A stretch of 32,000 bases of DNA, taken from contig NC_008340.1 of assembly GCF_000014785.1 (NCBI RefSeq), positions 2,610,001-2,642,000 on the forward strand. Reading direction: 5' to 3'. Below the pieces are notes generated by a model, which was given only the letters and a program-made list of their open reading frames with translations, had not been told where the DNA came from and ran no database searches. This document shows, piece after piece, positions 576 to 16,628 of this stretch; position 1 is the stretch's first letter; each line of letters opens with the position of its first letter. Position numbers and translations under genes: made by a program. Source of the DNA: Alkalilimnicola ehrlichii MLHE-1. Its GTDB lineage: Bacteria > Pseudomonadota > Gammaproteobacteria > Nitrococcales > Halorhodospiraceae.

Positions 576-1543
576 TAACCATTGCCTTCTTCAACAACAA
601 GGGTGGCGTCGGCAAGACTGCTTTGGTCTACCATTTGGCCTGGATGTTCGCCGATCAGGGCCGGTCCGTGCTCGCCGCGGACCTGGACCCCCAAGCCAAC
701 CTCTCCACCATGTTCCTGGACGAACAAAGCCTGGAAGGCTTCTGGCCGGAGGGGGACAGCACGCATACCGTACTCTCACCCATACGCCCACTGCTGGAAG
801 GCGAAGGCGGCATCGAAAGCCCTCATGTTGAGCCCATCGAGGACCTAGGCCTGCTGGTCGGAGACCTGGCCCTGTCCGGCTTCGAGGACGAACTCTCCCA
901 GCAATGGCCCCGCTGCCTGGACGGCGAGAAGCGGGCCTTTCGCATCATCGGCGCCTTTGCCGAAGTCATCCAACGTGCCGGCGCCAACCGGGAAGCCGAC
1001 CTGGCGCTGGTGGATGTCGGCCCCAACCTGGGAGCCATCAATCGTGCCGCACTCATTGCCGCAGATTATGTGGTCGTGCCCCTGGGGCCGGACCTCTTTT
1101 CCCTGAAGGGACTGCAAAACCTGGGCCCCACCCTCCGACGGTGGCGTACGGACTGGCGCAAGCGGCTGCAGGAATTACCCACCAATGTACAAGCCCCATC
1201 GGGGCAAATGACGCCGATCGGTTACGTGGTCATGCAGCATTCCGTCCGACTTGACCGGCCGGTCAAGGCGTATGGCAAATGGATGGACCGGATCCCCAGC
1301 ACTTACCACCGTTACGTCCTCGACAAACCGGACGCTGCCAACCTGCGTGTCGACGACGACAGCGAATGTCTGGCTGCATTGAAGGACTATCGGAGCCTGA
1401 TGCCCATGGCTCAGGAAGCCCGCAAGCCCATGTTTCACCTCAAACCGGCGGACGGCGCCATCGGCTCCCACGTCCGTGCGGTACAAAACTGCTACAAAGA
1501 TTTCCGGGACCTGGCAGCGGCTATCGACAGCCGCACGCAGTGA
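572..1543 (+). CDS. ParA/MinD-like P-loop ATPase (323 aa) with no adjacent parB-like gene
   Basis: GTG 572 overlaps the upstream stop. N-terminal deviant Walker A ITIAFFNNKGGVGKT, DLDPQANLS, and Walker-B-like LALVDVGPNLG. The last codons and stop lie in repeat-like sequence (CGCAGTGACGGTGGGGG). Confidence 0.8.
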   Translation: MITIAFFNNKGGVGKTALVYHLAWMFADQGRSVLAADLDPQANLSTMFLDEQSLEGFWPEGDSTHTVLSPIRPLLEGEGGIESPHVEPIEDLGLLVGDLALSGFEDELSQQWPRCLDGEKRAFRIIGAFAEVIQRAGANREADLALVDVGPNLGAINRAALIAADYVVVPLGPDLFSLKGLQNLGPTLRRWRTDWRKRLQELPTNVQAPSGQMTPIGYVVMQHSVRLDRPVKAYGKWMDRIPSTYHRYVLDKPDAANLRVDDDSECLAALKDYRSLMPMAQEARKPMFHLKPADGAIGSHVRAVQNCYKDFRDLAAAIDSRTQ

Positions 1544-2193
1544 CGGTGGGGGCACCCCCCGTCATCGTGATGAGTGCAGGCCCTCCCCCCGGCATCGCGA
1601 GGGCCGAAGGCCCGTGGCGATCCAAGGCGGTAGACTGCCACGTCGGCTTCGCCTCCTCGCAGTGACGGTGTGGGCAACACCCCCCGTCATCGCGAGGGCC
1701 GAAGGCCCGTGGCGATCCAAGGCGGTAGACTGCCGCGTCGGCTTCGCCTCCTCGCAGTGACGGTGTGGGCAACACCCCCCGTCATCGCGAGGGCCGAAGG
1801 CCCGTGGCGATCCAAGGCGGTAGACTGCCACGTCGGCTTCGCCTCCTCGCAGTGACGGTGGGGTAACACCCCCGTCATCGCGAGGGCCGAAGGCCCGCGG
1901 CGATCCAGGGCGGTAGACTGCCACGTCGGCTTCGCCTCCTCGCAGTGACGGTGGGGGCAACACCCCCCGTCATCGCGAGGGCCGAAGGCCCGCGGCGATC
2001 CAGGGCGGTAGACTGCCACGTCGGCTTCGCCTCCTCGCAGTGACGGTGGGGGCGGATCCGCGCTCGCAGTGACGGTGGGGGCCACCACCACCCCGTCCTC
2101 GCGATGACAGGGGTGTTGCCCCCTCCCCGTCCTCGCGAGGAGCGCCCCCTCCCCCCGTCATCGCGAGGAGCGCAGCGACGTGGCGATCCACAC
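1536..2193 (+). repeat. Hairpin-repeat array A1: 5 full about 94-bp units plus degenerate 3'-arm and type-B units
   Basis: GTCATCGCGAGGGCCGAAGGCCCG starts at 1686, 1781, 1874 and 1969 (period 93-95). An earlier unit lies at about 1587-1670. The tail CCGTCATCGCGAGGAGCGCAGCGACGTGGCGATCCACAC ends near 2193. Confidence 0.92.
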
Positions 2194-2294
2194 GTCAGCC
2201 AAAACACAACGGCATCGGCATCAACACATATCGTCGCGTTATGCGCCAAACACGATACTATTGATTTATGCCTCATAGCACATAAACTATCATC

Positions 2295-2546
2295 ATGATC
2301 GATCTCGCCCGCACGCCGAAGCAGGTCGGCAACCTCATCCGTCGAAGCCGGAAGCAACAGGGCCTTACCCAACAAGCGCTTGGGGCGAAGGCCGGTTACC
2401 GGCAGGAGACCATCTCGCTCATCGAGAATGGCCATCCGGCCGCCAAGCTGGAAACCCTCCTGGCTATCCTCGCCGCGCTCGATCTCGAACTCCGGATCGC
2501 ACCACGCTCCAAGGGAAGCGCCGCTGACATCGAGGACCTCTTCTGA
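2295..2546 (+). CDS. hipB: XRE-family HTH antitoxin, HipB-like (83 aa)
   Basis: HTH core QQGLTQQALGAKAGYRQETISLIENG. Its stop overlaps the hipA start (TGATG). An AT-rich leader lies upstream (2216-2294). Confidence 0.8.
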   Translation: MIDLARTPKQVGNLIRRSRKQQGLTQQALGAKAGYRQETISLIENGHPAAKLETLLAILAALDLELRIAPRSKGSAADIEDLF

Positions 2547-3859
2547 TGCCCCGGCGTCGGCGCCACCCTCCGCTACACGTCCTGCTGAACAACCGCCACG
2601 TCGGCCAGCTCCAAAAGGCGGTGGACGGTGCAATCAGTTTTACCTACGAGCAAAACTGGCTGGACTGGGACCACGCCCTACCCGTCTCGCTCTCCCTTCC
2701 CCTCCGCGAAGACCCCTACCGGGGTGCACCGGTGGCGGCAGTGTTCGACAACCTCCTGCCCGATGCCGAGCCGCTCCGCCGCCGCGTTGCCGAGCGCGTT
2801 GGCGCCGAGGGCACCGACGCCTACAGCCTGCTCTCAGCCATCGGCCATGATTGCGTCGGTGCCCTGCAATTCGTCGGCCCCGACGCCCCGGCCCCCGGCG
2901 ACACCACCCAAATTTCCGGCCAGGTCATTGACGAGGACGACATCGGGAGGCTGCTCCGGGGGCTGGCCCAGGCCCCACTGGGGCTGGACCGCGACGAGGC
3001 ATTCCGGATCTCCATTGCCGGGGTGCAGGAGAAGACCGCCCTGCTCCGGCATGAAGGCCGCTGGCTAAAACCCCACGGCACAACCCCGACCAGCCACATC
3101 CTCAAGCCTCAGATCGGCCAGTTGCCGAACGGCATCGACCTGTCCAACAGCGTCGAGAACGAATACTACTGCCTCAAACTGGCTGCCGCCTTCGGGTTGC
3201 CCGTCAACAGGGCCGAGATCCACACCTTTGGGCCCACCCAAGCACTCGTCGTCGAGCGCTTCGATCGCCACTGGACCCACGACGGCCGCCTGCTCAGACT
3301 CCCGCAGGAGGACTGCTGCCAGGCCCTATCCGTCCCGCCAACACGCAAGTACCAGACCGAGGGTGGCCCCGGTATCGTGCAACTTCTTGAACTGCTCAAC
3401 GGCAGCGACACCCCGGCCAAAGACCAGGCGACCGTCTTCAAGGCACAGATCTTCTTCTGGCTGATCGGCGCTACCGACGGGCACGCAAAGAACTTCAGCC
3501 TGTTTCTGCGGCCACAGGGCGCGTTTCGCCTGACCCCGCTGTACGACATCCTGACCGTCCAGCCGAGCCTTGCCGGCCGGCAAATCGAACGCAAGCAGAT
3601 GAAACTGGCCATGGCCGTGGGGCGCGGAAACCGCTACCGGATCCATGAAATCCAGGGCCGCCATTTCCTACAGACCGGCGCCGCCGCCCGCCTGCCGCGC
3701 ACCTTGGCCACCAACGTCATCGAGGACATAGTGACCCGCGCGGACAACGCCATCACGCAGGTCGAAAGCGCCTTGCCCCCCGACTTCCCCCCGGCAATCC
3801 ACGAAAGCGTGAAGGCGGCCATCGCCGGGCGCCTGGGGGTATTGCAGAGGGCGGGGTGA
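2546..3859 (+). CDS. hipA: HipA-family serine/threonine kinase toxin (437 aa), apparently intact
   Basis: Motifs ISIAGVQEKTALL, catalytic-loop-like GATDGHAKNFSLF and LTPLYDILT. The length matches HipA and the gene is coupled to hipB. Confidence 0.9.
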   Translation: MPRRRRHPPLHVLLNNRHVGQLQKAVDGAISFTYEQNWLDWDHALPVSLSLPLREDPYRGAPVAAVFDNLLPDAEPLRRRVAERVGAEGTDAYSLLSAIGHDCVGALQFVGPDAPAPGDTTQISGQVIDEDDIGRLLRGLAQAPLGLDRDEAFRISIAGVQEKTALLRHEGRWLKPHGTTPTSHILKPQIGQLPNGIDLSNSVENEYYCLKLAAAFGLPVNRAEIHTFGPTQALVVERFDRHWTHDGRLLRLPQEDCCQALSVPPTRKYQTEGGPGIVQLLELLNGSDTPAKDQATVFKAQIFFWLIGATDGHAKNFSLFLRPQGAFRLTPLYDILTVQPSLAGRQIERKQMKLAMAVGRGNRYRIHEIQGRHFLQTGAAARLPRTLATNVIEDIVTRADNAITQVESALPPDFPPAIHESVKAAIAGRLGVLQRAG

Positions 3860-3864
3860 GTGAA

Positions 3865-4296
3865 GGCTTCCCCCCGTCATCGCGAGGGCCGGAGGCCCGT
3901 GGCGATCCAGAGCGGTAGACTGCCACGTCGGCTTCGCCTCCTCGCAGTGACGGTGGGGGCGATTTTCCGCTTCCGGCACAGTCAAGTTCTTCAAGAGAGG
4001 GCCGGAGGCTTTCCCCCCCGTCATCGCGAGGGCCGAAGGCCCGTGGCGATCCAGGGCGGTAGACTGCCGCGTCGGCTTCGCCTCCTCGCAGTGACGGTGG
4101 AGGTAGCCTGCCGCTTCCTGCACCGCCCAGTTGTTCAAGAGTCCCGTAGGGGCGTGGCAGTTCAGGGCGGCGGGTGGATCGCCGCGTCGCTGCGCTCCTC
4201 GCGATGACGGGGAGGGGCTGCGCTCCTCGCGATGACGGGGAGGTGCTGCGCTCCTCGCGATGGCGGGGAGGGGCTGCGGGCCTCGCAATGGCGGGG
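3865..4296 (+). repeat. Hairpin-repeat array A2: 2 full units, two copies of a 37-bp insert module, then inverted type-B and short units
   Basis: Full units at about 3871-3958 and 4015-4098. TTCCGCTTCCGGCACAGTCAAGTTCTTCAAGAG sits at 3960-3997 with a diverged copy at 4099-4141. Reversed GGATCGCCGCGTCGCTGCGCTCCTCGCGATGACGGGG is followed by 28-bp reiterations to about 4296. Confidence 0.9.
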
Positions 4297-4437: not shown

Positions 4438-5559
4438 ATGAAAAAGAAGAACACCCTCACCACCCCCCTCATGCTTTCAGGACTGCTGGTCGGCTCTGCC
4501 TTCACCCTGAGCGGGTGCGTGAGCAGTTCCTCCAGCAGTGGGGACGACGCCACCGGCCCGCAGCATGACAGCCAAGGCGTGTTTGCCGCCGGGGCGCCGC
4601 TGAATAACGAGCAGGAGCTCGACGACGTCATCGCAGCGGCCAACCGGGCCGTCGGCGAGGACGGGGTTGAGCAATTCCTTGATGAGTTGGAAGGTGCAAT
4701 CTTCGTCAAGAGCGTCGATGTGGCCGGTGCCTCGACCACCGATGACGCCGATCGCACCACGGCAGCCCGCGACCGGCTGCGCGAGCGTGCCGGCAGGTGG
4801 CGCCAGGAGGACGCACCGGACCGGGTCATCGCCGCCACCGTCCAGCAGGACGACTGCCCCAACGGCGGCCATATCGTCATCACCAGTGACAGCACCGAAA
4901 ACGACCGTTACGAGCGCTGGGATACCACCGTGGCGTTCCACGGCTGCGCGGTGAACACGCCCTCCTGGGGTGACGTGGTGGTGAACGGGCAGCTCGACGA
5001 AACCTGGGAGGAGTCCTGGGGCGATGAAAACTTCGAGAACTACTCCGTCCACTTCGATATCACCGGCAGCGCCGCCGGGGGTGATCTGGTCCTCTCCGGC
5101 GAGGAACACTGGGGCATCCGCGCTCGGTCGGGCGACGTTTTCTTCAGCGAGCAGGTCCGCATCCCGCGGCTCGAGTTCCTGGCCGGCGAGCACTACATCG
5201 GGTTCCTGGACGTGGACCTGAACTACGTGGAGCGAGAGGTGGAGGAGCAGGGGACCACCCGGTACCCCTACGAAGACCACTGGAGCGGTCGCATCGGCAC
5301 CTCCGGCATGCAGGGCCACATCGCGCTGGATACCCCGAAAACCGTCGCCGGGCCGAACTACGATGCCTGCCCCACAGAGGGCGAGTTGACCATCAGCGGC
5401 AATGGCACCGCCTCCGTGCTCTTCGGGATGGACACCGGCATCTCCAACGCAGAAGTCGCCCTGGTGATCAACAACGCGCTCAGCCAAACCTGGGATGACT
5501 GCGACGACTTCTTCGACGAGTTCGACCTGCTCGAAGGCATCTTCCACGGCGGCCTGTAA
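4438..5559 (+). CDS. Hypothetical acidic lipoprotein (373 aa)
   Basis: Signal peptide with lipobox MKKKNTLTTPLMLSGLLVGSAFTLSGC followed by a Ser-rich linker. GGAGAA RBS upstream. No family recognised. Confidence 0.7.
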   Translation: MKKKNTLTTPLMLSGLLVGSAFTLSGCVSSSSSSGDDATGPQHDSQGVFAAGAPLNNEQELDDVIAAANRAVGEDGVEQFLDELEGAIFVKSVDVAGASTTDDADRTTAARDRLRERAGRWRQEDAPDRVIAATVQQDDCPNGGHIVITSDSTENDRYERWDTTVAFHGCAVNTPSWGDVVVNGQLDETWEESWGDENFENYSVHFDITGSAAGGDLVLSGEEHWGIRARSGDVFFSEQVRIPRLEFLAGEHYIGFLDVDLNYVEREVEEQGTTRYPYEDHWSGRIGTSGMQGHIALDTPKTVAGPNYDACPTEGELTISGNGTASVLFGMDTGISNAEVALVINNALSQTWDDCDDFFDEFDLLEGIFHGGL

Positions 5560-5575
5560 GCCCACCTCAGCACCC

Positions 5576-5599
5576 GGCCCCGGGGGGTTCCCCGGGGCC
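5576..5599 (+). terminator. GC-rich hairpin downstream of the lipoprotein gene (possible terminator, no U-tract)
   Basis: GGCCCCGGGG-GGTT-CCCCGGGGCC, a perfect 10-bp stem 17 nt after the TAA stop. No T-run follows, so an intrinsic-terminator role is uncertain. Confidence 0.35.
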
Positions 5600-5654
5600 C
5601 GTGCCGACACCCTCACCGCATTCCAGCCTCAGTCCGGTACCGGTTCAACGGTCG

Positions 5655-5792
5655 CTATCGCCGCCGCGGCGGCCAGGCCAGGCTGAAGTCCCCGTCGTTA
5701 AAGGCCACCGGCAGGTCGGTCTCGTTCAGTCCGCCCACCGCCTGGTAGCGCTCGCGACGGACCACGAGACAGGCGGCGGTCACCGCCCAGTC
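5655..5792 (-). pseudogene. Internal fragment of a family-2 glycosyltransferase (45 codons between two stops)
   Basis: The minus-strand translation DWAVTAACLVVRRERYQAVGGLNETDLPVAFNDGDFSLAW matches the conserved GT2 block (xxACLxVRRxxxxxVGGxxExxxVAxNDxDxxL). It has no start and is bounded by TAG on both sides. Confidence 0.45.
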
Positions 5793-5840
5793 CTAGCACC
5801 ACGCCCCCGTGCTGCGGGCGCTGCACAAGGGGTGGCCGGG

Positions 5841-6227
5841 ATGATCAGCGTATCCATCGTCAGCCACCGCCACGGCACCATGGTGGCCCGGCTGGTCGAC
5901 GCCCTGCTGGCCCTGCCGGAGGTGGGTCAGGTGGTGCTCACCCTCAACCGCCCGGACTGGGTGGCGGGCCTGTTCATCCTGGTGCGGGCACCGGCCTACC
6001 AGGCGGTGGGCGGCTTCGACGAGGACTACTTCCTCCACTACGAAGACGTGGGCCTCTGCGCCCGCCTCTGGGCCGCCGGCCACCCGGTCGCCCTGGACTG
6101 CAACGTCAGCATCAGCCACGACGCCCAATACCGCAGCCACCGGGACCCCATCCACTTCCTCTGGCACGTCGGCAGCCTACTGCGCTACCTCCGCAAACAC
6201 CAAGGCGGCGCCCGCCGCCCGCAGTAA
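5841..6227 (+). pseudogene. Family-2 glycosyltransferase with a large internal deletion (128 aa left)
   Basis: The N-terminal GT2 start MISVSIVSHRHGTMVARLVDALLALPEVGQVVLTLN joins directly to the C-terminal block DWVAGLFILVRAPAYQAVGGFDEDYFLHYEDVGLCARLWAAGHPV. About 90-100 aa, including the DxD region, are missing. The stop lies in repeat-like sequence. Confidence 0.55.
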
Positions 6228-6244: not shown

Positions 6245-6549
6245 CCCCGTCATCGCGAGGGCCGAAGGCTTTCTCCCCGTCATCGCGAGGGCCGAAGGCT
6301 TTCTCCCCGTCATCGCGAGGGCCGAAGGCCCGTGGCGATCCAGAGGGGTAGACTGCCACGTCGCTTCGCTCCTCGCAGTGACGGTGGGGGCGGATCCGCG
6401 CTCGCAGTGACAGTGGGGGGCGGATCCGCGCTCGCAGTGACAGTGGGGGGCCACCAACGCCCCGTCATCGCGAGGAGCGAAGCGACGCGGCGATCCACAC
6501 CCCGCCATGGACTGCCACGGCCCTACAGGGCACGCAGTGACGGTGGGCC
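6245..6549 (+). repeat. Hairpin-repeat array A3: 2 short 30-bp units, 1 full unit, 2 3'-arm units, 1 type-B unit
   Basis: CCGTCATCGCGAGGGCCGAAGGCTTTCTCC x2, then a full unit, GGCGGATCCGCGCTCGCAGTGACAGTGGGG x2, then CCGTCATCGCGAGGAGCGAAGCGACGCGGCGATCCACAC... A degenerate 3'-arm motif already begins at about 6219. Confidence 0.92.
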
Positions 6550-6606: not shown

Positions 6607-6852
6607 ATGAAACAGGAAACGACCAAGATCACCATCCGTCTACCGCGACAAGACGTCGAGTTCGCCAAGGCCTACGCCAGGGCGCACGGCCTCAGCATGA
6701 CTGAAGTCATTGATCGTTACCTGCGTCGCCTGCGGGCGCTAGAGCGCCACCAGCCCAGCCCCGAACTGGACGCGATCACCGGCCTGCTGCCAGCCGACCT
6801 GGACGCTGAACAGGCGTACCGAGACCACTTAGTCGAGAAACATCGCCCGTGA
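6607..6852 (+). CDS. vapB: Ribbon-helix-helix-type antitoxin partner of the PIN toxin (81 aa)
   Basis: KITIRLPRQDVEFAKAYARAHGLSMTEVIDRYL is a typical RHH/CopG-like N-terminus. GGGAGG RBS lies at about 6591. The stop overlaps the vapC start (GTGA). ATG 6556 is an alternative start. Confidence 0.7.
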   Translation: MKQETTKITIRLPRQDVEFAKAYARAHGLSMTEVIDRYLRRLRALERHQPSPELDAITGLLPADLDAEQAYRDHLVEKHRP

Positions 6853-7250
6853 TCATGCTGGACCTGAACGTTCTTCTGGACGTTCTGCAAAAAAGGGCGC
6901 CGCATTATCAGGCATCCGCCGCCGTCCTCGAGCATGTCATCCACGGTGAAGAACAAGGCGCACTCAGCGCGCACGCAGTCACTACGGTTCACTACCTGGT
7001 GAGCCGGTACGCGACTCGCGCCGCGGCGGACGGCGCCCTGGATTGGCTTCTCCGGCACTTTCACGTGTGTGCAGTGGGCCGTGACGAACTGGAACAGGCC
7101 CGGTCCCTTGGCTGGCCCGACTTCGAGGACGCGGTTCTGGCATGTGTCGCGCAGAGTGCCGGGTGCAGCTACATCGTGACGCGAAATATCAAGGACTTCG
7201 AACGATCACCGGTAACGGCGTTAACGCCGCAGGAGTGGCTACTTCGCTGA
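6849..7250 (+). CDS. vapC: PIN-domain ribonuclease toxin VapC (133 aa)
   Basis: MLDLNVLLD (first acidic residue), WPDFEDAVLACVAQ and YIVTRNIKDF are typical PIN signatures. The gene is coupled to the upstream RHH gene. Confidence 0.85.
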   Translation: MIMLDLNVLLDVLQKRAPHYQASAAVLEHVIHGEEQGALSAHAVTTVHYLVSRYATRAAADGALDWLLRHFHVCAVGRDELEQARSLGWPDFEDAVLACVAQSAGCSYIVTRNIKDFERSPVTALTPQEWLLR

Positions 7251-7265: not shown

Positions 7266-7592
7266 TCCGTCATCGCGAGGGCCTCCTCCCCCGTCATCGC
7301 GAGGGCCGAAGGCTTTCCCCCCGTCATCGCGAGGGCCGAAGGCTTTCTCCCCGTCATCGCGAGGGCCGAAGGCCCGTGGCGATCCAGAGGGGTAGACTGC
7401 CACGTCGCTTCGCTCCTCGCAGTGACAGGGGGCGCACCCCCCGTCATCGCGAGGGCCGAAGGCCCGTGGCGATCCAGGGCGGTAGACTGCCACGTCGGCT
7501 TCGCCTCCTTGCAGTGACGGGGTGGCCCCTCCCCCGTCATCGCGAGGAGCGCAGCGACGCGGCGATCCATACCCCGGCATGGACTGCCACGC
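7266..7592 (+). repeat. Hairpin-repeat array A4: 3 short units, 2 full units, 1 type-B unit
   Basis: Same unit types as A3. The type-B end CCGTCATCGCGAGGAGCGCAGCGACGCGGCGATCCATACCCCGGCATGGACTGCCAC lies at about 7535-7592. Confidence 0.92.
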
Positions 7593-7666
7593 CCCTTCGT
7601 AGGCTTGCACAGCCAGTGTAAGGAACAACGGCTACGTTGAGATCAGGCCAAGGAAGACATATCATA

Positions 7667-8089
7667 ATGATAAGTCCCAAACCAAACGTAAGCGCCTTTG
7701 ATGGTTTCCCACCTACGGCGACTGAAGACCGCGCCATCCAGGGTGGGCCACTGTATCCGCCGGACACCGTGGTGGCGCTGGCGAGGGAAGAAGCGCTCGC
7801 TTTCTGGAGCCGAGGGGCTATTCGAGACGCAGAGAAGTGGGGGCTTGATGTCCCGAGCGCGTGTCAATTAGTGGTAATGGCCGTCCGGCACGGCCACTAC
7901 CTGGGCGCACAATGGTGCATCCAGGGGCCTCGCGGGCCATGGGCAGCCTGCGACGCCTACAAAGTCACGAATCACGAGTGGATCGAGCATGCCCATCGGC
8001 ACATACCGGTCACGTATTACCTGAAATTTTGTATCGCGAAGACCGGAGCAATGCTGCTTTCGGTCTCCAACCACCCGGAGGGTACCTGA
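7667..8089 (+). CDS. mqsR: MqsR-family toxin (about 140 aa)
   Basis: The C-terminal pattern ACDAYKV...YYLKFCIAKTGAMLLSVSNH parallels E. coli MqsR (WQDVYRP...VYLKITVIHDVLIVSFKE). It lies directly upstream of an MqsA-type antitoxin. AGGAAG RBS precedes ATG 7667; ATG 7637 is an alternative start. Confidence 0.7.
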   Translation: MISPKPNVSAFDGFPPTATEDRAIQGGPLYPPDTVVALAREEALAFWSRGAIRDAEKWGLDVPSACQLVVMAVRHGHYLGAQWCIQGPRGPWAACDAYKVTNHEWIEHAHRHIPVTYYLKFCIAKTGAMLLSVSNHPEGT

Positions 8090-8705: not shown

Positions 8706-9139
8706 AAGCCAGCCCGCTGACCCTGCACGGGATCGAGTTCGTGCGCGTCCACGTAGAATCCGATCTCGAGGCGGAAACACGCCGTGCAGAGCAATTCCAG
8801 TTCGACGGCACCACTCTAAAGTGGGGGCTGGACCACGGTCGCGACGAGGATAACGGAACTTGGTGGGTGGCCGTTGGTTTCGGGACCCACCAAGAGGACG
8901 ACGAACCACGGTGTCCCTACATTTTGGATGTCCAGGCCGTCGGCATCGTTTCTGTCTCGGACCAGCTCCCCGAGAAAGACCACGAAAAACTCGCTTTCGA
9001 ATACGGCGCCGCCCTCGTCTACGGCGCCATTCGCGAGATGGTCACCAACATCACCGCCCGTAGCCTCGCCGGACCGCTAATGCTTCCCACGCCAAGCTTC
9101 ATCGGCGCACTGGAAACAAGAAAGCAGCCGGGCAACTGA
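8702..9139 (+). CDS. SecB-like chaperone (145 aa), third gene of a TAC-type locus
   Basis: ATGA overlap with mqsA. The pattern CPYILDVQAVGIVSV...FEYGAALVYGAIREMVTNITARSLAGPLMLPTPSF matches the SecB core (C..Q.GIF.....YP.ARE.I....SRG.FP.L.L.P.NF). Confidence 0.7.
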   Translation: MKASPLTLHGIEFVRVHVESDLEAETRRAEQFQFDGTTLKWGLDHGRDEDNGTWWVAVGFGTHQEDDEPRCPYILDVQAVGIVSVSDQLPEKDHEKLAFEYGAALVYGAIREMVTNITARSLAGPLMLPTPSFIGALETRKQPGN

Positions 9140-9160: not shown

Positions 9161-9701
9161 CCCCGTCATCGCGAGGGCCGAAGGCTTTCCCCCCGTCATC
9201 GCGAGGGCCGAAGGCTTTCCCCCCGTCATCGCGAGGGCCGGAGGCCCGTGGCGATCCAGAGGGGTAGACTGCCGCGTCGGCTTCGCCTCCTCGCAGTGAC
9301 GGGGTGGCCCCTCCCCCCGTCATCGCGAGGGCCGGAGGCCCGTGGCGATCCAGGGCGGTAGACTGCCGCGTCGGCTTCGCCTCCTCGCAGTGACGGGGTG
9401 GCCCCTCCCCCCGTCATCGCGAGGGCCGGAGGCCCGTGGCGATCCAGGGCGGTAGACTGCCGCGTCGGCTTCGCCTCCTCGCAGTGACGGGGTGGCCCCT
9501 GCCCCGTCATCGCGAGGGCCGGAGGCCCGTGGCGATCCAGAGGGGTAGACTGCCGCGTCGGCTTCGCCTCCTCGCAGTGACGGGGTGGCCCCTCCCCCCG
9601 TCATCGCGAGGGCCGAAGGCCCGTGGCGATCCAGGGCGGTAGACTGCCGCGTCGGCTTCGCCTCCTCGCAGTGACGGGGTGGCCCCTCCCCCCGTCATCG
9701 C
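9161..9701 (+). repeat. Hairpin-repeat array A5: 2 short units, 5 full units, and a 6th unit cut after CCGTCATCGCA
   Basis: Full-unit starts at 9225, 9319, 9413, 9506 and 9600 (period 93-94). The last unit is truncated at 9701, where the hipB-like coding sequence begins. Confidence 0.93.
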
Positions 9702-9953
9702 AAGGGGTGGACCCAGGAAGAACTCGCTGAGCGAGTCGGCGTTGGCGTGATCACGATCCGCCGGGTTGCCAAGGGCTCCCCCCGGGTGGCCATCGGCACT
9801 TACTTTGAAGCGGCCGCACTGGTTGGGGTTTCACTGTTCACCGATGATCCGGACAGGCTCAAACGCGAGCATGCAACCCAGCAGGAACGGCTGACGCTGC
9901 TACCCAAGCGAGTCCGTCGTCAAACACCAGAGCCCCTCGACGATGATTTCTAG
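9702..9953 (+). pseudogene. 5'-truncated XRE/HipB-like antitoxin gene (N-terminus replaced by the repeat array)
   Basis: The frame reads ...KGWTQEELAERVGVGVITIRRVAKGSPRVAIGTYFEAAALVGVSL, i.e. helix 2-3 of an XRE HTH without helix 1 or a proper start. Only an internal GTG at 9747 is available. Confidence 0.6.
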
Positions 9954-10185
9954 CAACCGCGCTTATGTCTGGATCTGGCTGCCCGGCCAGACATCGCCTG
10001 TAGTAGCCGGACTTGTTGAGCGCGACGACCAAGACCGGTACCGCTTTGCCTATGGTCGGCGCTATCTGGCCCGTGAAGATGCAATCAGCCTGTATCCCGA
10101 CGAACTGCCCTGCTGTAGTCATCGCCGCCAGCGGCATGTGCGAATGACGAACCACGGCTTCCCCAGCATTTCCCTAACGGCCTGA
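9943..10185 (+). pseudogene. HipA N-terminal fragment (80 codons, homology lost after about 55 aa)
   Basis: AYVWIWLPGQTSPVVAGLVERDDQDRYRFAYGRRYLAREDAISLYPDELP is the HipA N-terminal subdomain pattern. The kinase core is absent. Confidence 0.65.
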
Positions 10186-10331
10186 AACATGCAGCAGCGG
10201 TGTTAGACTAAACCGAGGTCAAAACCCTCATCGCCACGTGGTGGATCAAAGGCCAGAACATTGCCCACGAGCCCCAGGAATACACAAGGCTCCGAGAAAA
10301 ATCGCCGTCCTCAAGAATTGCCCATGGAGAC

Positions 10332-10766
10332 ATGATGCGGACTCGAGCCCGCCCCAAAAGGAATTCCAAGCGCCGGCTACATCCTGAATTGACCGTCGAG
10401 CGGCGCCGGGCACTCGCCCAGTGTGTCAAATATGTCGGCAGCCCCTTGCACAAGCGCAACCCCGGTGATTTCGGGCTGACGCCGCCCGTTGCGGCCCGTC
10501 CCGGGAAGAGCCTGTGTGATGATGTCTCGATCTTCGAGCGAGACAAGGCTCAGGTGCTGCTGCGAGAGGGAGTGCAAGCGGGCCTTGTAAGCCGTGATGC
10601 CGACGAGGGCTTCCCGCGCCACATCTGGATGGTTCACGAAGGGCGAGTCATCGAGGCACGTTGTGACAACATGGAAGCCGGAACCTACCATGGCTACCCC
10701 CTGGAAGCCGACGATCCCATGGCCGATGCTGTAAAGCGCGAATGGAGCCGGAGGCAAGCAGAATGA
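10332..10766 (+). CDS. Hypothetical basic 144-aa protein, first gene of an unknown two-gene operon
   Basis: GGAGA RBS. Arg/Lys-rich N-terminus. Conserved-looking blocks YVGSPLHKRNPGDFGL and GTYHGYPL. Its stop overlaps the next start (ATGA). No family recognised with confidence. Confidence 0.6.
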   Translation: MMRTRARPKRNSKRRLHPELTVERRRALAQCVKYVGSPLHKRNPGDFGLTPPVAARPGKSLCDDVSIFERDKAQVLLREGVQAGLVSRDADEGFPRHIWMVHEGRVIEARCDNMEAGTYHGYPLEADDPMADAVKREWSRRQAE

Positions 10767-12097
10767 GCGATACCCTGCGATTCGACTGGGAGTGGCTGGC
10801 CTACCCAGAATTGCCTGCTGAAGAGGCTGTGACCTTTGCTGACCTGAGCATCCGGCTCAACGACAAGGCCATGACTCGCCTCTACGACGTGGCCGCCAAG
10901 ACCGAGCGCGACAACCTTTTCGCTGCCGCGTACCCGTTGGCTCAATTTCTAGCGGAAAACTGGTGGCGCATCCGCTGGGAGCCCGCGCCGGCCAGTCTTT
11001 CAAACGCGGGGCCACAGTGGCGTCTGGCGCATAACATCGCAGCCGCTGGTGCCGGCTATGTCTGGCCCAACATCACCTTCCACGGCGATGGCGAGCGGAT
11101 GTTCATGCACGTCGGACCCCACACCTCTGAGTCCTCCGCCGTGCAGTTCGTCTCGGAGGGAAATGGTGTGCTCGACGCCGCAATGTTCGAAGCAGAGGCC
11201 GATCGTTTCATGGAAGGCGTCTTGGCCCGACTGCAAGCCTGTGGCCACCCGGATACGGAGCTCGAACAGCTCTGGCGAGCGGTCCAGGCCGAGCGTTCCA
11301 GCAACGAAGACTGTGAGCGGCGGCGGCTGGAGGCCATGGCGGGCTTCGATCCCGACGAAGCGCCAGAGGCCATGCTGGACGAACTGTTGCAGCTCGAACA
11401 GCGCCTTGGGGTTTCAGCCATCCGAGAATTGGCTGCGGCCTCGCGGGCAAACACACTGGACCATGTGCGAACCCTGGAAGAGGCACTTTGTGCTCGGGGC
11501 CTTCGGTATCAGGTCCCGGATACGAGTCGAATGAGGATTGAATGGCCTGCCCCGCCATGGCGCAGGGCTGTCGAAGTCGCAAAGGCCGCTCGACAGGCCT
11601 GGGGCCTGAACAATGGCCCACTGGATAACACGCAGCTCGCCGCCATCGTGGATCTACCGCGCGAGCAGCTTGACTCTTCGGCACCTGAAGCAGTGCCCTA
11701 CAGCGCGAGCCTGCGCGGGGGGGAAGAGGGCGACAGACTAGTGTTCAGAACCGGCCATCGGCACGGACGCCGCTTCGCAATCGGTCGCCTGATGGGTGAC
11801 GCCTTCTACTCACCCGGGGAAGGGGGGGCACTGGCGGCCGCAACGGATGCCCGGACGGGACGCCAGAAGTTTCAGCGGGCCTTCGCGCAGGAGCTGCTGT
11901 GCCCATTCGAGGCATTGAGCGACTTTCTCAACCTGGGCCAGGACTGGGATGCATGTGACGATATCACCCCCCCGAACGAGGACCGCATCGAAGAGGCAGC
12001 GGAGTATTTCGACGTCTCACCGGTGCTCGTTCAGAGCACGCTTGTCAACCACAACGTCTTGCCCCGCGACGTACTCGAAATAACGGACGCCGCCTGA
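10763..12097 (+). CDS. Hypothetical 444-aa protein whose C-terminal region resembles an ImmA/IrrE (M78) domain lacking the HExxH motif
   Basis: GGAGG lies 8 nt upstream of ATG 10763. N-terminal block AAAYPLAQFLAENWWRIRWEP. The C-terminal GRRFAIGRLMGDAF...RQKFQRAFAQELLCPFEAL aligns with the M78 pattern RRFTLAHELGHLL...E.EANRFAAELLMP. Confidence 0.65.
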   Translation: MSDTLRFDWEWLAYPELPAEEAVTFADLSIRLNDKAMTRLYDVAAKTERDNLFAAAYPLAQFLAENWWRIRWEPAPASLSNAGPQWRLAHNIAAAGAGYVWPNITFHGDGERMFMHVGPHTSESSAVQFVSEGNGVLDAAMFEAEADRFMEGVLARLQACGHPDTELEQLWRAVQAERSSNEDCERRRLEAMAGFDPDEAPEAMLDELLQLEQRLGVSAIRELAAASRANTLDHVRTLEEALCARGLRYQVPDTSRMRIEWPAPPWRRAVEVAKAARQAWGLNNGPLDNTQLAAIVDLPREQLDSSAPEAVPYSASLRGGEEGDRLVFRTGHRHGRRFAIGRLMGDAFYSPGEGGALAAATDARTGRQKFQRAFAQELLCPFEALSDFLNLGQDWDACDDITPPNEDRIEEAAEYFDVSPVLVQSTLVNHNVLPRDVLEITDAA

Positions 12098-12121: not shown

Positions 12122-12619
12122 CTGTCATCGCGAGGGCCGAAGGCTTTCCCCCGTCATCGCGAGCCCCCCACCCCGCTGCGCGGGCCCGAATCAACGAGGA
12201 ACGGGGCACCCCCGGTCATCGCGAGGGCCGAAGGCCCGTGGCGATCCAGGGCGGTAGACTGCCGCGTCGGCTTCGCCTCCTCGCAGTGACGGTGGGGGCG
12301 ACTTTCCGCTTCCGGCACAGTCAAGTTCTTCAAGAGGGCCGAAGGCCCGTGGCGATCCAGGGCGGTAGACTGCCACGTCGGCTTCGCCTCCTCGCAGTGA
12401 CGGGGTGGCCCCTCCCCCCGTCATCGCGAGGGCCGAAGGCCCGTGGCGATCCAGAGGGGTAGACTGCCACGTCGGCTTCGCCTCCTCGCAGTGACGGTGG
12501 GGATGGGGCCCCGCTCGCAGTGACGGTGTGGATGGGCCCCCGCTCGCAGTGACGGTGGGGGCGGGTCCGCTCCTCGCGGTGACGGTGGGGGCGGGTCCAC
12601 GCTTGCAGTGGCGATGAGG
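12122..12619 (+). repeat. Hairpin-repeat array A6: 1-2 short units, 3 full units (one carrying the 37-bp insert module), 4 3'-arm units
   Basis: Full units lie between about 12214 and 12495. TTCCGCTTCCGGCACAGTCAAGTTCTTCAAGAG is at 12300-12337. Reiterated GCTCGCAGTGACGGTGKGG-type units run from 12496 to 12619. Confidence 0.92.
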
Positions 12620-12648: not shown

Positions 12649-14031
12649 ATGGACGACCCCACCCTCCTCCACCACGGCGGCGCTGACGGCGTCACCGGCA
12701 GTTGCCACCAACTCTACGCCAGCCCCGACCACTCACTCCTCATCGACTGCGGCCTCTTCCAAGGCGAAGACGCCGGCCCCGACCCCCTCGCCCAACACAC
12801 CGTCGACTTCGACGTCGACACCCTCCAGGCCCTCGTCCTCACCCACGTCCACATCGACCACGTCGGCCGGCTGCCCTACCTGCTGGCCGCCGGCTACCGC
12901 GGCCCCATCCTCTGCAGCCACCCCTCCGCCCACCTGCTGCCGCTGGTCATTGACGACGCCCTGCGCATCGGCTTCACCCGTGACGGCCAACTCATCGCGC
13001 GCTTCCAGCAGCAGGTCCAAAACCAACTGACCCCCCTCAAATACAGCCGCTGGCACACCGTCACCGACAACCGCCACCTCACCCTCAAGGTCCGCCTGGA
13101 GCGCGCCGGCCACATCCTCGGCTCCGCCTACGTCAAAGTCGCCATCCGGGACAAACGCACCGGCCGCACACACCGCACCGTCTTCTCAGGCGACCTGGGC
13201 GCCCCCGGCTCGCCGCTGCTGCCCGCCCCGCAATCGCCCCACCACGCCGACCTCCTCGTCCTGGAGGCCACCTACGGCGACCGCAGCCACGAAAACCGCG
13301 ACCAGCGCCGCCACCGCCTGCGCCAGGCCATCGAACACGCCGTGCAGGACGGCGGCACCGTCATCATCCCCGCCTTCAGCATCGGCCGCACCCAGGTGCT
13401 GCTCCACGAGCTGGAAGCGCTCACCCACACCGCCCAAGGCCCCTGGCGCCACCTGCGCATCATCGTCGACTCCCCCCTGGCCGCCCGCTTCAACCGCGTC
13501 TACCGCCGCCTGAAACCCTACTGGGACCAAGAGGCCAGAAAACGGGCCCGACAAGGCCGCCACCCCCTCAACTTCAGCCGCCTGCACACCGTCGACAGCC
13601 ACGCCCAACACCAACACACCGTCACCACCCTGGCCCAGGGCGGCCACCCGGCCGTGGTCATCGCCGCCAGCGGCATGTGCGCCGGCGGCCGCGTCGTCAA
13701 CTACCTGAAAGCCATGCTCGGCGACCCACGCCACCACGTGCTGTTCGTCGGCTACCAAGCGGAAGGCACCCCCGGGCGGGACATCCAGCGCTACGGCCCA
13801 ACCGGCGGCTGGGTAGACCTGGACGGAGAACGGTTCGACATCCGCGCCGGCGTCACCACCATCGGCGGCTACTCCGCCCATGCAGACCAACAGGACCTAC
13901 TGCGGTTCGTACAACAGATGAAGCGCCCACCCGGCACCATCCGACTGGTGCACGGCAGCGCCCGCGCCCGGGAGACACTGGCCAACGCCCTCACCCGGCA
14001 GGGCCATACCGTGACCCAGGGAGGGTCATGA
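12649..14031 (+). CDS. Beta-CASP family metallo-beta-lactamase-fold nuclease (RNA-metabolising MBL hydrolase), 460 aa
   Basis: AAAGGAGAA RBS. LLIDCGLFQG, HxHxDH motif LTHVHIDHVGRLPYL, later SGDLG, IPAFSIGRTQ, GYSAHADQ and RLVHGS, typical of beta-CASP enzymes. Confidence 0.85.
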   Translation: MDDPTLLHHGGADGVTGSCHQLYASPDHSLLIDCGLFQGEDAGPDPLAQHTVDFDVDTLQALVLTHVHIDHVGRLPYLLAAGYRGPILCSHPSAHLLPLVIDDALRIGFTRDGQLIARFQQQVQNQLTPLKYSRWHTVTDNRHLTLKVRLERAGHILGSAYVKVAIRDKRTGRTHRTVFSGDLGAPGSPLLPAPQSPHHADLLVLEATYGDRSHENRDQRRHRLRQAIEHAVQDGGTVIIPAFSIGRTQVLLHELEALTHTAQGPWRHLRIIVDSPLAARFNRVYRRLKPYWDQEARKRARQGRHPLNFSRLHTVDSHAQHQHTVTTLAQGGHPAVVIAASGMCAGGRVVNYLKAMLGDPRHHVLFVGYQAEGTPGRDIQRYGPTGGWVDLDGERFDIRAGVTTIGGYSAHADQQDLLRFVQQMKRPPGTIRLVHGSARARETLANALTRQGHTVTQGGS

Positions 14032-14076: not shown

Positions 14077-14399
14077 CCCCGTCACTGCGAGCGCCGAAGG
14101 GGCGTGACAGTCCATACGGCGTGTGGATCGCCGCGTCGCTTCGCTCCTCGCGATGACGGGGGCGGCGCCCCCACCGTCACCGCGAGAGCGGACCCGCCCC
14201 CACCGTCACTGCGGGCGGGGGCCCATCCACACCGTCACTGCGAGGAGGCGAAGCCGACGTGGCAGTCTACCCCTCTGGATCGCCACGGGCCTTCGGCCCT
14301 CGCGATGACGGGGGAAAGCCTTCGGCCCTCGCGATGACGGGGGAAAGCCTTCGACCCTCGCGATGACGGTGAGAAAGCCCTCGGCCCTCACGATAACGG
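14077..14399 (-). repeat. Hairpin-repeat array A7, inverted orientation: type-B, 3 3'-arm units, 1 full unit, 4 short units as read on the + strand
   Basis: Reverse complements of all unit types are present, e.g. GGAGGCGAAGCCGACGTGGCAGTCTACCCCTCTGGATCGCCACGGGCCTTCGGCCCTCGCGATGACGGGGG and GAAAGCCTTCGGCCCTCGCGATGACGGGG reiterated. Confidence 0.9.
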
Positions 14400-14514: not shown

Positions 14515-14560
14515 GCCGTGCCACCGCATGTCATCCTTGCGGTAGCGTGCCCGAAAGCCG
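14515..14560 (+). repeat. Left copy of the 46-bp direct repeat flanking the ATPase/DUF4276 module
   Basis: GCCGTGCCACCGCATGTCATCCTTGCGGTAGCGTGCCCGAAAGCCG, 45/46 identical to 16355-16400. Confidence 0.9.
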
Positions 14561-14657
14561 GCACCAGGATATGAAAGCAGACGGCTCCCAAACGACATGC
14601 GACAAGGTTTTGGGACCCTACACGTATTGAGGCACACCGAATGAAGGGACTGATTCA

Positions 14658-15788
14658 ATGACATCGGAATCGGACCTGTGTAGCCGAATTTCACGCGTGA
14701 GCATCCGCGGGTTCCGTAGCCTAGCCTGTGTCGAGAACCTTGAGCTCCCGCAACTAGCGGTCCTGATTGGGGCAAACGGATCGGGCAAATCCAACCTCAT
14801 CCGATTCTTCGAGATGCTGAGCTACTCGCTCAAGGGCCGGAACCTTCAGCAGTTCGTGATCGAAAAAGGGGGCGGTGACGACCAGCTCTTTTTCGGAGCG
14901 CGGACCACGTCCCGCCTGGAAGCAGAGATCGCGCTGGAGACTGAGCAGGGCACCAATGAGTACCGGATGGCCCTGACCCACGTCGCACCAGACTCCCTGG
15001 CCTTCGCCGAAGAGGCTTTCCGGTTCTCCCGGCACGACCGCGAAGGCAGCAGCGACTGGATTCACCTCCCCATGCCGGCTCAGGAATCGGGCCTGCCGGT
15101 GGCCGCAGCGGATAGTGGTCAGCGGTCGCGGCGCACAGCACGCACGCTCCTTTACCTGCTGCGCAACTGCGCCACCTTCCAGTTTCATGACACCTCGGCA
15201 AAGGCCAGTCTGAACATGCGCTGGGATGAGAGCGAAAACGCACGCATGCGCTCGGATGGCGGAAACCTGGCCCCCATACTGCTGCATCTTTCTCAGGAGC
15301 ATCCCCGGCGTTACCGGCTCATCACGCGGCAGATTCAACGCGTTCTCCCCGTGTTCGAAGACTTCGACCTGCAATCGACGGGGGGCAAGGTGTTGCTGCG
15401 CTGGCGCGCCCGAAACAGCGACAACACCTTCGGGCCGCATCTGACATCGGACGGCTCGCTGCGACTGTTTTGCCTATTCACCCTGCTCAATCTGCCGGGG
15501 GAAATGCTCCCGGACGTACTCATGATCGACGAACCGGAACTGGGCCTTCATCCGCACGCTATCGCCCTGACCGCCGATATGCTCAAGAGCCTCTCCGTCC
15601 ATCGGCAAGTCTTCATCGCCACCCAGTCACCACTGATGGTCGACGCCTTCGACGTGGATAACATCCTCGTCGCCAGCCTGAAAGACGGCGCAACAGACCT
15701 GACGCCCATGGACCGTGACGAATACCGGGTCTGGCTTGAAAGCGGCTACCAGCCCTCGGATCTATGGCTCAAAGAACCGGTGGGCTGA
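14658..15788 (+). CDS. AAA_21/ABC-type (SMC-like) ATPase, 376 aa, defence-associated type
   Basis: Walker A LIGANGSGKSNL close to the N-terminus, distal Walker B LLMIDEPELGLHP and signature-like TSDGSLR. This split-ABC architecture is typical of OLD/AbiL/PARIS-type ATPases. Confidence 0.85.
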   Translation: MTSESDLCSRISRVSIRGFRSLACVENLELPQLAVLIGANGSGKSNLIRFFEMLSYSLKGRNLQQFVIEKGGGDDQLFFGARTTSRLEAEIALETEQGTNEYRMALTHVAPDSLAFAEEAFRFSRHDREGSSDWIHLPMPAQESGLPVAAADSGQRSRRTARTLLYLLRNCATFQFHDTSAKASLNMRWDESENARMRSDGGNLAPILLHLSQEHPRRYRLITRQIQRVLPVFEDFDLQSTGGKVLLRWRARNSDNTFGPHLTSDGSLRLFCLFTLLNLPGEMLPDVLMIDEPELGLHPHAIALTADMLKSLSVHRQVFIATQSPLMVDAFDVDNILVASLKDGATDLTPMDRDEYRVWLESGYQPSDLWLKEPVG

Positions 15789-15791
15789 GTG

Positions 15792-16354
15792 ATGAGTTCC
15801 AGTGTTCGATTGCTTGTGGTCTGCGAGGGACAGACAAGGGCGGAGGAAACGTCAACATCGAGCGACTGGCTATCCACCTGGCCAACGAATACCCCAACCA
15901 TGACTTTGTCACCACGTTGGTCGACCTCTACGGGTTCAGTGACCGGGAAGGACGAAGTCGGACAGAGCTTGAAGAGGCCATCCGCGAAGCCGTCCTAAGC
16001 CGTCGTCGAGACATTCAGACGGATAGAGTCATCCCGTATGTGCAGCAGTATGAATTCGAAGCGCTGCTGTTCAGCGATATTCAGGGTTTTCAATGGGTGG
16101 TTGATGGCTGGTCCACTGGGGCAGAGCGCCAACTTCAGAGCATCGTCGATAATTACTCGGACCCCGAGCAAATCAACGACAACCCGACCACCGCGCCCTC
16201 GAAACGCCTGGAAGCCATCTTCCGCGGTTACTATCGGAAGACCGAACATGGCCCGATCATTGCCGAAGAAATCGGGTTGGCAGTGATCCGCAGTCAGTGC
16301 CCAGGCTTCGACGGTTGGATAACCAAACTGGAAGGCCTTAATCGACCGCGTTAA
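15792..16354 (+). CDS. DUF4276-family (TOPRIM-like) protein interrupted by an apparent single-base frameshift near 15849-15851
   Basis: The N-terminal hallmark MSSSVRLLVVCEGQTRAEET is in frame 3 (15792-15851). The rest, VNIERLAIHLANEYPNHDFVTTLVDLYGF...EFEALLFSD...PSKRLE, is in frame 2 to TAA 16354. The only frame-2 ATG (15764) overlaps the ATPase gene and lacks the VxCEGxTE block. Confidence 0.7.
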
Positions 16355-16400
16355 GCCGTGCCACCGCATGTCATCCTTGCGGTAGCGTGCTCGAAAGCCG
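16355..16400 (+). repeat. Right copy of the 46-bp direct repeat, starting immediately after the DUF4276 stop
   Basis: GCCGTGCCACCGCATGTCATCCTTGCGGTAGCGTGCTCGAAAGCCG. Confidence 0.9.
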
Positions 16401-16433
16401 ACCCCACACGTCACCGGGGGCCCCACACCCTCA

Positions 16434-16628
16434 CCCCGTCAATGCGAGCCCCGAACCCTTCACCCTCGTCACTGCGAGCCCCCGAAGGGGGCGCGGCAGT
16501 CCACCGCCCTGGATCGCCACGGGCCTTCGGCCCTCGCGATGACGGGGGAAAGCCTTCGGCCCTCACGATGACGGGGTGATGCCTCCCCACCGGCCCTGCG
16601 AACCGCCAAAAGGGGCGCGGCAGTCCAC
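16434..16628 (-). repeat. Hairpin-repeat array A8, inverted and degenerate (about 1 full unit plus arm units), abutting the glycan locus
   Basis: CCCTCGTCACTGCGAGCCCCCGAAGGGGGCGCGGCAGTCCACCGCCCTGGATCGCCACGGGCCTTCGGCCCTCGCGATGACGGGGG plus GAAAGCCTTCGGCCCTCACGATGACGGGG. It ends 5 nt before ATG 16633. Confidence 0.8.

Follow-up and report, generated by a model that had tools for sequence, protein, structure and literature searches.

Here, we analysed a 32-kb stretch of the Alkalilimnicola ehrlichii MLHE-1 genome (NC_008340.1, positions 2,610,001 to 2,642,000; the window, with position 1 as its first letter), in which eight arrays of a single repeat family (A1 to A8 in Table 1) separate the same-orientation gene cassettes of a toxin-antitoxin and defence island. 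We conclude that these arrays are probably clusters of CGTC-tagged repetitive extragenic palindromes (REPs), that is, hairpin modules that were amplified in place within the island.

CGTC-tagged REPs, as described by Di Nocera, De Gregorio and Rocco (2013, BMC Genomics 14:522; PMC3733652, drawn on here in part), are defined by an unpaired CGTC or TGTC (or CCTC) tag, a stem that starts with an A-T pair, and a CCA tail. According to the same text, they occur mainly as head-to-head dimers, often heterodimers, with the tags outside, downstream of open reading frames (ORFs), and in none of the species examined there do they flank a gene for a REP-associated tyrosine transposase (RAYT) or any other transposase. 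The repeats of the window are alike in the tag, the A-T stem start and the CCA tail, in the head-to-head heterodimeric arrangement, in the location downstream of ORFs, and in having no associated transposase. Their stem design departs from that of the four families described in the parts of PMC3733652 used here, so that the window family would be an undescribed member of the class. Thus, we treat it as a further, undescribed family of the CGTC-tagged REP superfamily, with the proviso that it is set apart from the others by their text descriptions, not by consensus sequences.

Architecture of the repeat unit and growth of the arrays

Each full unit consists of two inverted, diverged modules of ~35 nt arranged head to head, with the tags facing outward and the tails 8–10 nt apart. 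The module comprises, in this order, the unpaired CGTC tag, an outer stem of 4–5 bp (AYYGC with GCRRT), a fixed internal loop, a variable apical stem, and the CCA tail, as exemplified by the left module, CGTC-ATCGC-GAGG-GCC-GAA-GGC-CCGTG-GCGAT-CCA. The internal loop (GAGG/CGTGG) combines a bulged G and a G-T pair with an A/G mismatch, and the apical stem is mostly capped by a GNA triloop, each half-unit being a hairpin in itself. The tail GCGATCCA is common to all units of the window, and CCCCGTC is found in every full unit but one (GGCA at 1587). The arm-only units are modules truncated directly after the apical hairpin; 2–4 copies of these head-only pieces stand to the left of a full dimer, and inverted truncated modules of another subtype to its right, as at 6245–6450, where there are 3+3 heads, those of the full unit included.

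An earlier note on this DNA, made from the letters alone, had proposed that the two halves of the unit are diverged inverted copies of one module and that each unit forms a long imperfect hairpin; both proposals are borne out, the former by sequence comparison and the latter by folding. As RNA, the dimer reaches −48.5 kcal/mol on the plus strand (z-score −2.1) and −55.7 kcal/mol on the minus strand (z-score −3.9), whereas as DNA, it forms one long hairpin with z-scores of −1.3 and −2.4 against shuffled sequences. Stability exceeds that of the shuffles only moderately because the sequence is ~70% G+C. The energy test being weak for such repeats, the structure is argued mainly from covariation.

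The arrays span positions 1534–16626, with A7 and A8 inverted relative to the others, and sum to ~3.2 kb, or ~21% of the 1.5–16.6 kb region. They contain 19–20 near-identical full units (~87 nt each, with a period of 93–95 nt) and many head-only pieces of 28–30 nt. Tandem Repeats Finder reported periods of 94–95 nt at 1585–2053 (5.0 copies, 96% matches) and 9218–9706 (5.2 copies, 96%), a 90-nt period at 7349–7547, a 144-nt period at 3870–4141, and 10 arrays with periods of 28–30 nt, starting at 2118, 4189, 6245, 6372, 7288, 9161, 12485, 14166, 14289 and 16409. A BLAST search with the consensus of the earlier note yielded 19 matches of at least 70 of the 87 nt (95–100% identical), one 53-nt partial match and ~30 arm-only matches, all within 1536–16576, and a degenerate module pattern matched 8 times, compared with 0 in 100 shuffles. 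The eight arrays of one family, the tally of about 20 full units plus many arm-only ones, the head-to-tail order with its 93–95 bp period, the share of about 20% of the first 16.6 kb and the start positions listed for GTCATCG, all put forward in that note, are confirmed by these searches, as is the non-coding character of the arrays, which create spurious ORFs of up to 133 amino acids on the minus strand. A coding-repeat reading is ruled out by a period that is not a multiple of 3, and a reading as clustered regularly interspaced short palindromic repeats by the lack of spacers between the repeats. A ninth array lies just upstream: the 2.4-kb contig carrying the first two genes, which extends the window by ~1.4 kb, starts inside another array.

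Unit identity is 96.0% within arrays versus 93.5% between arrays, and the junctions between units are array-specific, for example, GGCAACACC in A1 and GGGGTGGCCCC in A5. Given that each array repeats its own junction, the arrays grew in place by tandem duplication of the unit together with the junction. The VapBC cassette is flanked by A3 and A4, which are 94–96% identical to each other over 154 and 65 nt. In another organism, the same pattern is found at 8570–8890 of locus L187, where stuttered heads (six, with a period of 29–30 nt) stand on both sides of one full dimer.

A comparison is provided by the soda-soil metagenome contig SR_TP_S13solDRAFT_1000048, which encodes orthologues of the VapBC pair (82.7% nucleotide identity) and of the beta-CASP nuclease (79.5%). 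This contig carries an array of three 94–95 nt units with stuttered heads (L144, 640–1000) in the same position as A6, upstream of the beta-CASP gene. The units of L144 resemble one another but are only 76–84% identical to the arrays of the window (mostly 81–83% for the full-unit arrays), whereas units within one genome are 93–100% identical. The units are thus homogenised within each genome, and a long-lived array has undergone concerted evolution. In the related contig, the VapBC genes are directly followed by REP clusters and then by the beta-CASP gene, whereas in the window, two additional cassettes lie in between, with A4–A6 as their boundaries; 16 other window proteins tested have no match in 23 kb of that contig. 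Only two cassettes are common to both, and the differences in gene content start and stop at arrays, in a comparison that covers one related contig only, with a 4-kb gap in the stretches compared.

Conservation and spread of the module

We scanned one genome per species with the pattern GTCAYYGCGAGG-N7-12-CGTGGCRRTC and obtained at least 120 matching stretches from at least 14 phyla. These matches come from Chloroflexota, Bacillota, Bacteroidota, Patescibacteria, Planctomycetota, Verrucomicrobiota, Spirochaetota, Elusimicrobiota, Campylobacterota, Nitrospirota, Armatimonadota, Melainabacteria, deltaproteobacterial lineages, and alpha-, beta- and gammaproteobacteria. A head-to-head partner is present within 150 nt of 63 of the 125 modules examined across phyla, compared with a background of 3.7% for the motif in randomly chosen 150-nt windows. 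In 100 modules taken from other genomes, GTC is preceded by C in 49 cases and by T in 43; the CCA tail is present in 27 of 100 modules across phyla, most others having CTC.

The structure of the module is likewise conserved. In a gap-free alignment of 38 sequences, two-sided changes were found in 5 of the 11 pairs, and the covariation score (0.198 versus 0.077) was reached by none of 500 shuffles and collapsed in controls with slid partners. All 38 sequences have A-T as the first pair of the stem, and 37 have T-A and one has C-G as the second pair, whereas the third covaries between T-A (29) and C-G (8). Nested positions in the apical stems of 91 distinct apical regions are canonical in 76% of cases, compared with 36% (standard deviation 2%) in shuffles, and at its base, the apical stem has Watson-Crick pairs in alternation with tandem G-A/A-G pairs. 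Of the 91 distinct loops, 43 are GNA triloops with a closing C-G pair, and 2 are GAAA tetraloops.

The exact 32-nt left module was found in 58 stretches on 54 metagenome contigs with a G+C content of 55–71%, among them 10 large contigs of one soda-soil metagenome. These copies are mostly single head-to-head dimers beside unrelated genes. Thus, the family is dispersed, with the exact module found beside unrelated housekeeping genes on many contigs and the module type present in many phyla, and the confinement to a single locus that the earlier note had weighed as a sign of purely local amplification does not apply to the family as a whole. A metagenome scan for the exact centre of the dimer gave 0 matches; searches of a plasmid collection by megablast and blastn with one array and with a single unit gave none; a protein search with a spurious array ORF returned one weak match only; and literature searches by DNA string and by spurious-peptide string retrieved only unrelated primer matches.

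Two further observations concern other genomes. Among IMG/VR viral contigs (L004–L015), the module type is present in 12 stretches on 11 contigs, at times paired or in tandem (L006, L010). In three Dehalococcoidia genomes (L016, L030 and L132), the ~60-nt spacer between inverted modules is conserved (tcgttgaggttgaacacgcgtcggc...), so that the whole dimer, including the spacer, would be conserved or mobile there.

Class membership and the transposase question

How well do the arrays fit the class to which we assign them? Clusters of CGTC REPs are rare except in Neisseria and Wolbachia (PMC3733652), whereas the elements of the window are massively clustered. The host, the gammaproteobacterium Alkalilimnicola, is missing from the species list of the same paper, and the module described here is found in at least 14 phyla, compared with 5 given there for the class. 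In this light, the view expressed in the earlier note that the density and the strict tandem order are unusual is fair as far as CGTC REPs are concerned, but tandem clusters of REP dimers as such are already known.

The nearest parallel within the class is Neisseria, where the dRS3 elements are CGTC-1 REPs that reside mostly in large clusters (PMC3733652), an organisation shared by the window arrays and the neisserial intergenic mosaic elements (NIMEs). The dRS3 stem, ATTCCCGC, however, differs from that of the window, and in NIMEs, dRS3 is interleaved with unrelated RS segments instead of forming head-to-tail copies of one dimer. The dRS3/NIME regions have been linked to recombination and variable gene content in Neisseria, and dRS3 is also a target of phage integration, whereas no link to phage integration was seen for the window repeats. 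Outside the class, the bacterial interspersed mosaic elements BIME-2 of Escherichia coli are similar: two types of REP alternate there in inverted orientation within tandem arrays, and these arrays lie between same-orientation or convergent genes. By contrast with the window modules, the REPs of BIME-2 are of the GTAG type, come with a cognate RAYT, are bound by gyrase, integration host factor and DNA polymerase I, and differ in sequence and stem design.

The earlier note placed the repeats with the REPINs (REP doublets forming hairpins) of Pseudomonas, which, together with their RAYTs, were reportedly described by Bertels and Rainey in 2011. Under this alternative, the inverted REP pairs are non-autonomous elements moved by a cognate Y1 (IS200-like) transposase encoded elsewhere in the genome. 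The recognition of paired inverted REP-like modules that fold as one hairpin stands; indeed, the architecture is the same, with inverted palindromes, an unpaired 5′ tetranucleotide and a single hairpin, and REPINs too exist as singlets, doublets and tandem clusters. Moreover, the GNA triloops suggest a single-stranded DNA substrate, as for Y1 enzymes. The filing in the REPIN/RAYT class is not supported: the tag is CGTC rather than GTAG, and the tag, the A-T stem start and the CCA tail are features of CGTC REPs, which flank no RAYT or other transposase gene in any species covered by PMC3733652, as drawn on here. The vertically inherited RAYT flanked by the same REPs that accompanies the GTAG tag in Pseudomonas has, like that tag, no counterpart in the window.

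A direct search for the enzyme points in the same direction. The 32-kb window encodes no Y1 domain protein, tyrosine recombinase or other relevant enzyme, a Y1 gene is likewise absent from the ~1.4 kb recovered upstream of it, and no family is enriched among the ORFs neighbouring 110 modules across phyla or among the 119 ORFs adjoining the exact module in metagenomes, both sets consisting mostly of housekeeping genes. With a Thioalkalivibrio RAYT as the query, one weak relative was found near a module, in a member of Patescibacteria (L084); this sole Y1-like gene in the vicinity of a module is flanked by its own, different hairpins. Across the metagenome loci that carry the exact module (345 kb), the same query found no relative. 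The module family thus has no associated transposase in the window or in the neighbourhoods of about 230 modules elsewhere, in agreement with the findings on the CGTC class in the parts of PMC3733652 used here.

The Thioalkalivibrio RAYT comes from an island equivalent to the one analysed here. In Thioalkalivibrio sp. GCA_000378585.1 (L140, 2960–6220), polysaccharide genes are followed by toxin-antitoxin cassettes, including a 75–76% identical VapBC, and then by a 49% identical MarR, and every intergenic gap is filled with GTAG-type REP dimers. A gene for a 147-amino-acid RAYT (Y1 transposase) is located at 3304–3747, and the locus has zero CGTC heads. The presence of a RAYT gene with REP dimers in the equivalent island of a related genus might seem to favour a REPIN-like origin of the window arrays, but that RAYT is flanked by GTAG REPs. 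The same layout is made up here of members of the other REP superfamily, which is an argument that islands of this type collect whichever REP family resides in the genome. Taken together, these findings make a REPIN-RAYT system an unlikely explanation, and we retain the assignment to the CGTC-tagged REPs.

Several observations weigh against that assignment or against parts of it. The described CGTC families have stems of 8–9 bp and loops of 4–5 nt (PMC3733652), whereas the window module has a two-part stem in which 11 positions are paired, with a bulged G and an A/G mismatch, and a loop that is mostly a 3-nt GNA; as the authors of that paper note, bulged variants may have escaped their search. 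The peptides expected from the module (VIAR, VIAS, LRGA, CEER, LAMT and ARND) are absent from the supplementary files of PMC3733652, and the stem sequence of the window leaves no trace in its main text and five supplementary files. In the folding comparison with shuffled controls that the earlier note had suggested, the dimer showed the moderate excess given above, but single modules had no stability beyond that of shuffles (z-scores from −1.3 to +0.5). A motif scan of the 16.7–32 kb region found zero REP heads, so that within the window, the family is restricted to the island. Neither the window nor the module neighbourhoods revealed a mobilising enzyme, and the dispersal step is one that we infer. 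Finally, the arrays contain no canonical intrinsic terminators, and the comparison of cassette content extends to a single relative.

The island, its cassettes and the possible roles of the arrays

The arrays start 13–55 nt past the stop codon of the upstream cassette, except for A1, the inverted head of which overlaps the stop. The genes between the arrays (Table 1) are accessory; among their products are HipBA, VapBC, MqsA-like, HEC-01 and beta-CASP proteins.

Table 1. Representative modules, REP arrays and gene cassettes of the island (positions in the window)
Feature	Position	Strand	Description
Left module, representative	1873–1907	+	CGTC tag, ATCGC outer stem, GAGG/CGCGG internal loop, GGCC-GAA-GGCC apical hairpin, CCA tail
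Right module, representative	1916–1950	-	inverted heterodimer partner: CGTC-ACTGC-GAGGAG-GC-GAA-GC-CGACGTG-GCAGT-C
A1	1534–2189	+	inverted head over the stop codon of the upstream gene, then 5 full head-to-head dimer units (1587–2051, period 93–95)
A1, continued	1534–2189	+	head-only pieces, terminal single module 2153–2189
A2	3872–4296	+	two full units 144 nt apart, second repeat element (3960–3998) between them
A2, right part	4189–4296	+	4 inverted head-only units, 28-nt period
A3	6245–6547	+	2 head-only units, 1 full unit, 2 inverted head-only units, further dimer 6460–6547
A4	7267–7596	+	3 head-only units, 2 full units, terminal dimer; near-duplicate of A3 across the VapBC cassette
A5	9161–9706	+	2 head-only units, then 5 full units, 94-nt period
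A6	12124–12610	+	head-only units, 3 units (one without head), 4 inverted head-only units (29-nt period)
A7	14079–14399	-	one variant dimer, then a composite of head-only units, full unit, head-only units
A8	16409–16626	-	degenerate; head-only units and one dimer; 84% identical to A7
Cassette 1	63–1543	+	C-terminal end of AlbA_2/HATPase_c_4 protein; ParA-like ATPase (572–1543), stop codon inside REP head
Cassette 2	2295–3859	+	HipB-HipA toxin-antitoxin pair
Cassette 3	4438–6227	+	two proteins, no family match
Cassette 4	6607–7250	+	DUF6364 antitoxin and PIN toxin (VapBC-like)
Cassette 5	7637–9139	+	MqsA-like antitoxin (8091–8705), ORFs without assigned function on either side
Cassette 6	9747–12097	+	three proteins, no family match
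Cassette 7	12649–14031	+	beta-CASP metallo-beta-lactamase nuclease
Cassette 8	14658–16354	+	AAA_21 ATPase and DUF4276 protein, candidate defence system HEC-01 (PADLOC)
Right island edge	16576–16956	+	MarR-family regulator; rml and polysaccharide genes beyond, without REPs

The TGA codon of the ParA-like gene (1541–1543) lies inside an inverted REP head (CGCAGTGACGG), and thus, the REP supplies the end of this ORF. The PIN toxin (VapC) is 100% identical to a protein listed in the nr database under Alkalilimnicola ehrlichii. The ORF at 7637–8089 (150 amino acids), which follows A4, has no family match and no gene in the public annotation, and may not be a real gene. The HEC-01 cassette is bracketed, inside A7/A8, by direct repeats of 52 nt (14515–14566 and 16355–16406; 94% identical, GCCGTGCCACCGCATGTCATCCTTGCGGTAGCGTGC...), which look like an insertion scar or an attachment site independent of the REPs. 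A second, unrelated repeat (GCGAYTTTCCGCTTCCGGCACAGTCAAGTTCTTCAAGAG) is present at 3960–3998 and 12299–12336, between REP units of A2 and A6, where it takes the place of the head of the next unit; a diverged copy is located near 4108–4140. A 35-nt direct repeat (91% identical) occurs at 10108–10142, upstream of a cassette with no assigned function, and at 13647–13681, inside the beta-CASP gene.

Past the right edge of the island, RmlB has its closest match in Thioalkalivibrio (~80%). Together with the VapC match, this makes a gammaproteobacterial host of the Ectothiorhodospiraceae most likely and speaks against an alphaproteobacterial (Acetobacteraceae) origin, which the literature had led us to consider. 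At the rml locus of a relative (L139), no arrays were found in the 750 nt upstream of rmlB. The only mobile element of the window is an insertion sequence of the IS3 family (HTH_Tnp_1 orfA and rve orfB; 29600–31146, minus strand) in the polysaccharide cluster. It adjoins a low-GC (48%) segment with a sulfotransferase gene, suggestive of recent horizontal acquisition; the low-GC stretches are at 28.0–29.4 kb and 31–32 kb.

The layout of the island invites comparison with integrons; the repeats would then be attC-analogous sites at which promoter-bearing cassettes are captured and shuffled by a dedicated site-specific recombinase. All cassettes are in one orientation with a structured repeat at each 3′ end, their toxin-antitoxin and defence content is as in sedentary chromosomal integrons, the module combines a conserved base with a variable terminal structure and an extrahelical base, as attC does, and the cassette content differs from that of the relative exactly at the arrays. 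The details, nevertheless, do not match. There is no RYYYAAC or GTTRRRY core site, nor even a GTT/AAC triplet in the consensus unit, and no tyrosine recombinase (IntI) gene in the window or the 1.4 kb upstream. The sites are multi-copy tandem arrays instead of one per cassette, and in other genomes, the module is single and scattered beside housekeeping (core) genes. Furthermore, the equivalent Thioalkalivibrio island uses an unrelated REP type, as though REPs accumulate in such islands rather than define them. A platform of this kind, served by its own recombinase, is therefore very improbable. A looser variant, a REP-built, integron-like platform for cassette exchange in which a hairpin-recognising enzyme or RecA excises and inserts the promoter-bearing toxin-antitoxin and defence cassettes, fares somewhat better and yet strikes us as doubtful. 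If it were true, a widespread and so far undiscovered DNA-processing activity would use the near-universal 32-nt module as its recognition site, and the question of what mobilises CGTC REPs would be answered.

Alternatively, the repeats could be RNA elements, i.e., hairpins transcribed at the 3′ ends of the upstream mRNAs, which they would terminate, insulate or stabilise, and mobility at the DNA level would be irrelevant. The start of the arrays within 55 nt of the upstream stop codon fits such a role, and so do the tolerance of G-U pairs, with T/C variation at the G-T position that keeps the pairing, and the better folding of the dimer as RNA compared with shuffles (z-score down to −3.9); many REPs have been argued to act as RNA (PMC3733652, as used here). 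However, no Rfam 15 covariance model matched the repeats at gathering scores or even at E-values up to 1, and a tRNA and tmRNA search found none. No terminator-like site with a T tract falls in the arrays, which rules out a role as intrinsic terminators. A7 and A8 are inverted relative to genes on the same strand, C-GNA-G triloops dominate over GNRA tetraloops, and an RNA role alone accounts neither for 32-nt modules that are identical across phyla nor for the tandem amplification. Accordingly, we give this explanation little weight as a replacement for the CGTC-tagged REP reading.

Within the latter, the modules would act as single-stranded DNA hairpins. Given that the tag and the non-canonical positions are invariant, that the apical stem is free to vary, and that C-GNA-G triloops prevail, a single-stranded hairpin recognised by a protein seems the most apt description. 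Mini-hairpins of the d(GCGAAGC) type, with such triloops, are exceptionally stable in DNA. A trans-acting enzyme that recognises the module hairpins might once have seeded new sites, or might still seed them, after which the arrays would lengthen and shorten by unequal recombination or replication slippage. Such long direct repeats could make the island recombinationally plastic, with cassettes gained and lost between arrays. In transcripts, the arrays probably serve as 3′ hairpin barriers or insulators between operons.

The findings bear on an orphan class of elements, the CGTC-tagged REPs, which are widespread as hairpin repeats and for which neither a transposase nor an agreed function is known. 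One module design, with a fixed base (a bulged G and a G-T pair), a free apical stem and a GNA triloop, has been kept across at least 14 phyla, a constancy that speaks for a protein recognising the module, as opposed to hairpin stability alone. At a practical level, the arrays disrupt short-read assemblies around every cassette and yield spurious ORFs. The Alkalilimnicola locus is an unusually clean natural system for the study of CGTC REPs, with ~20 near-identical dimers and array-specific junctions that record in-place amplification, with a conserved array in a related organism, and with an equivalent island in the neighbouring genus Thioalkalivibrio, where GTAG REPs and a RAYT gene present the true REP-RAYT arrangement in the same lineage.

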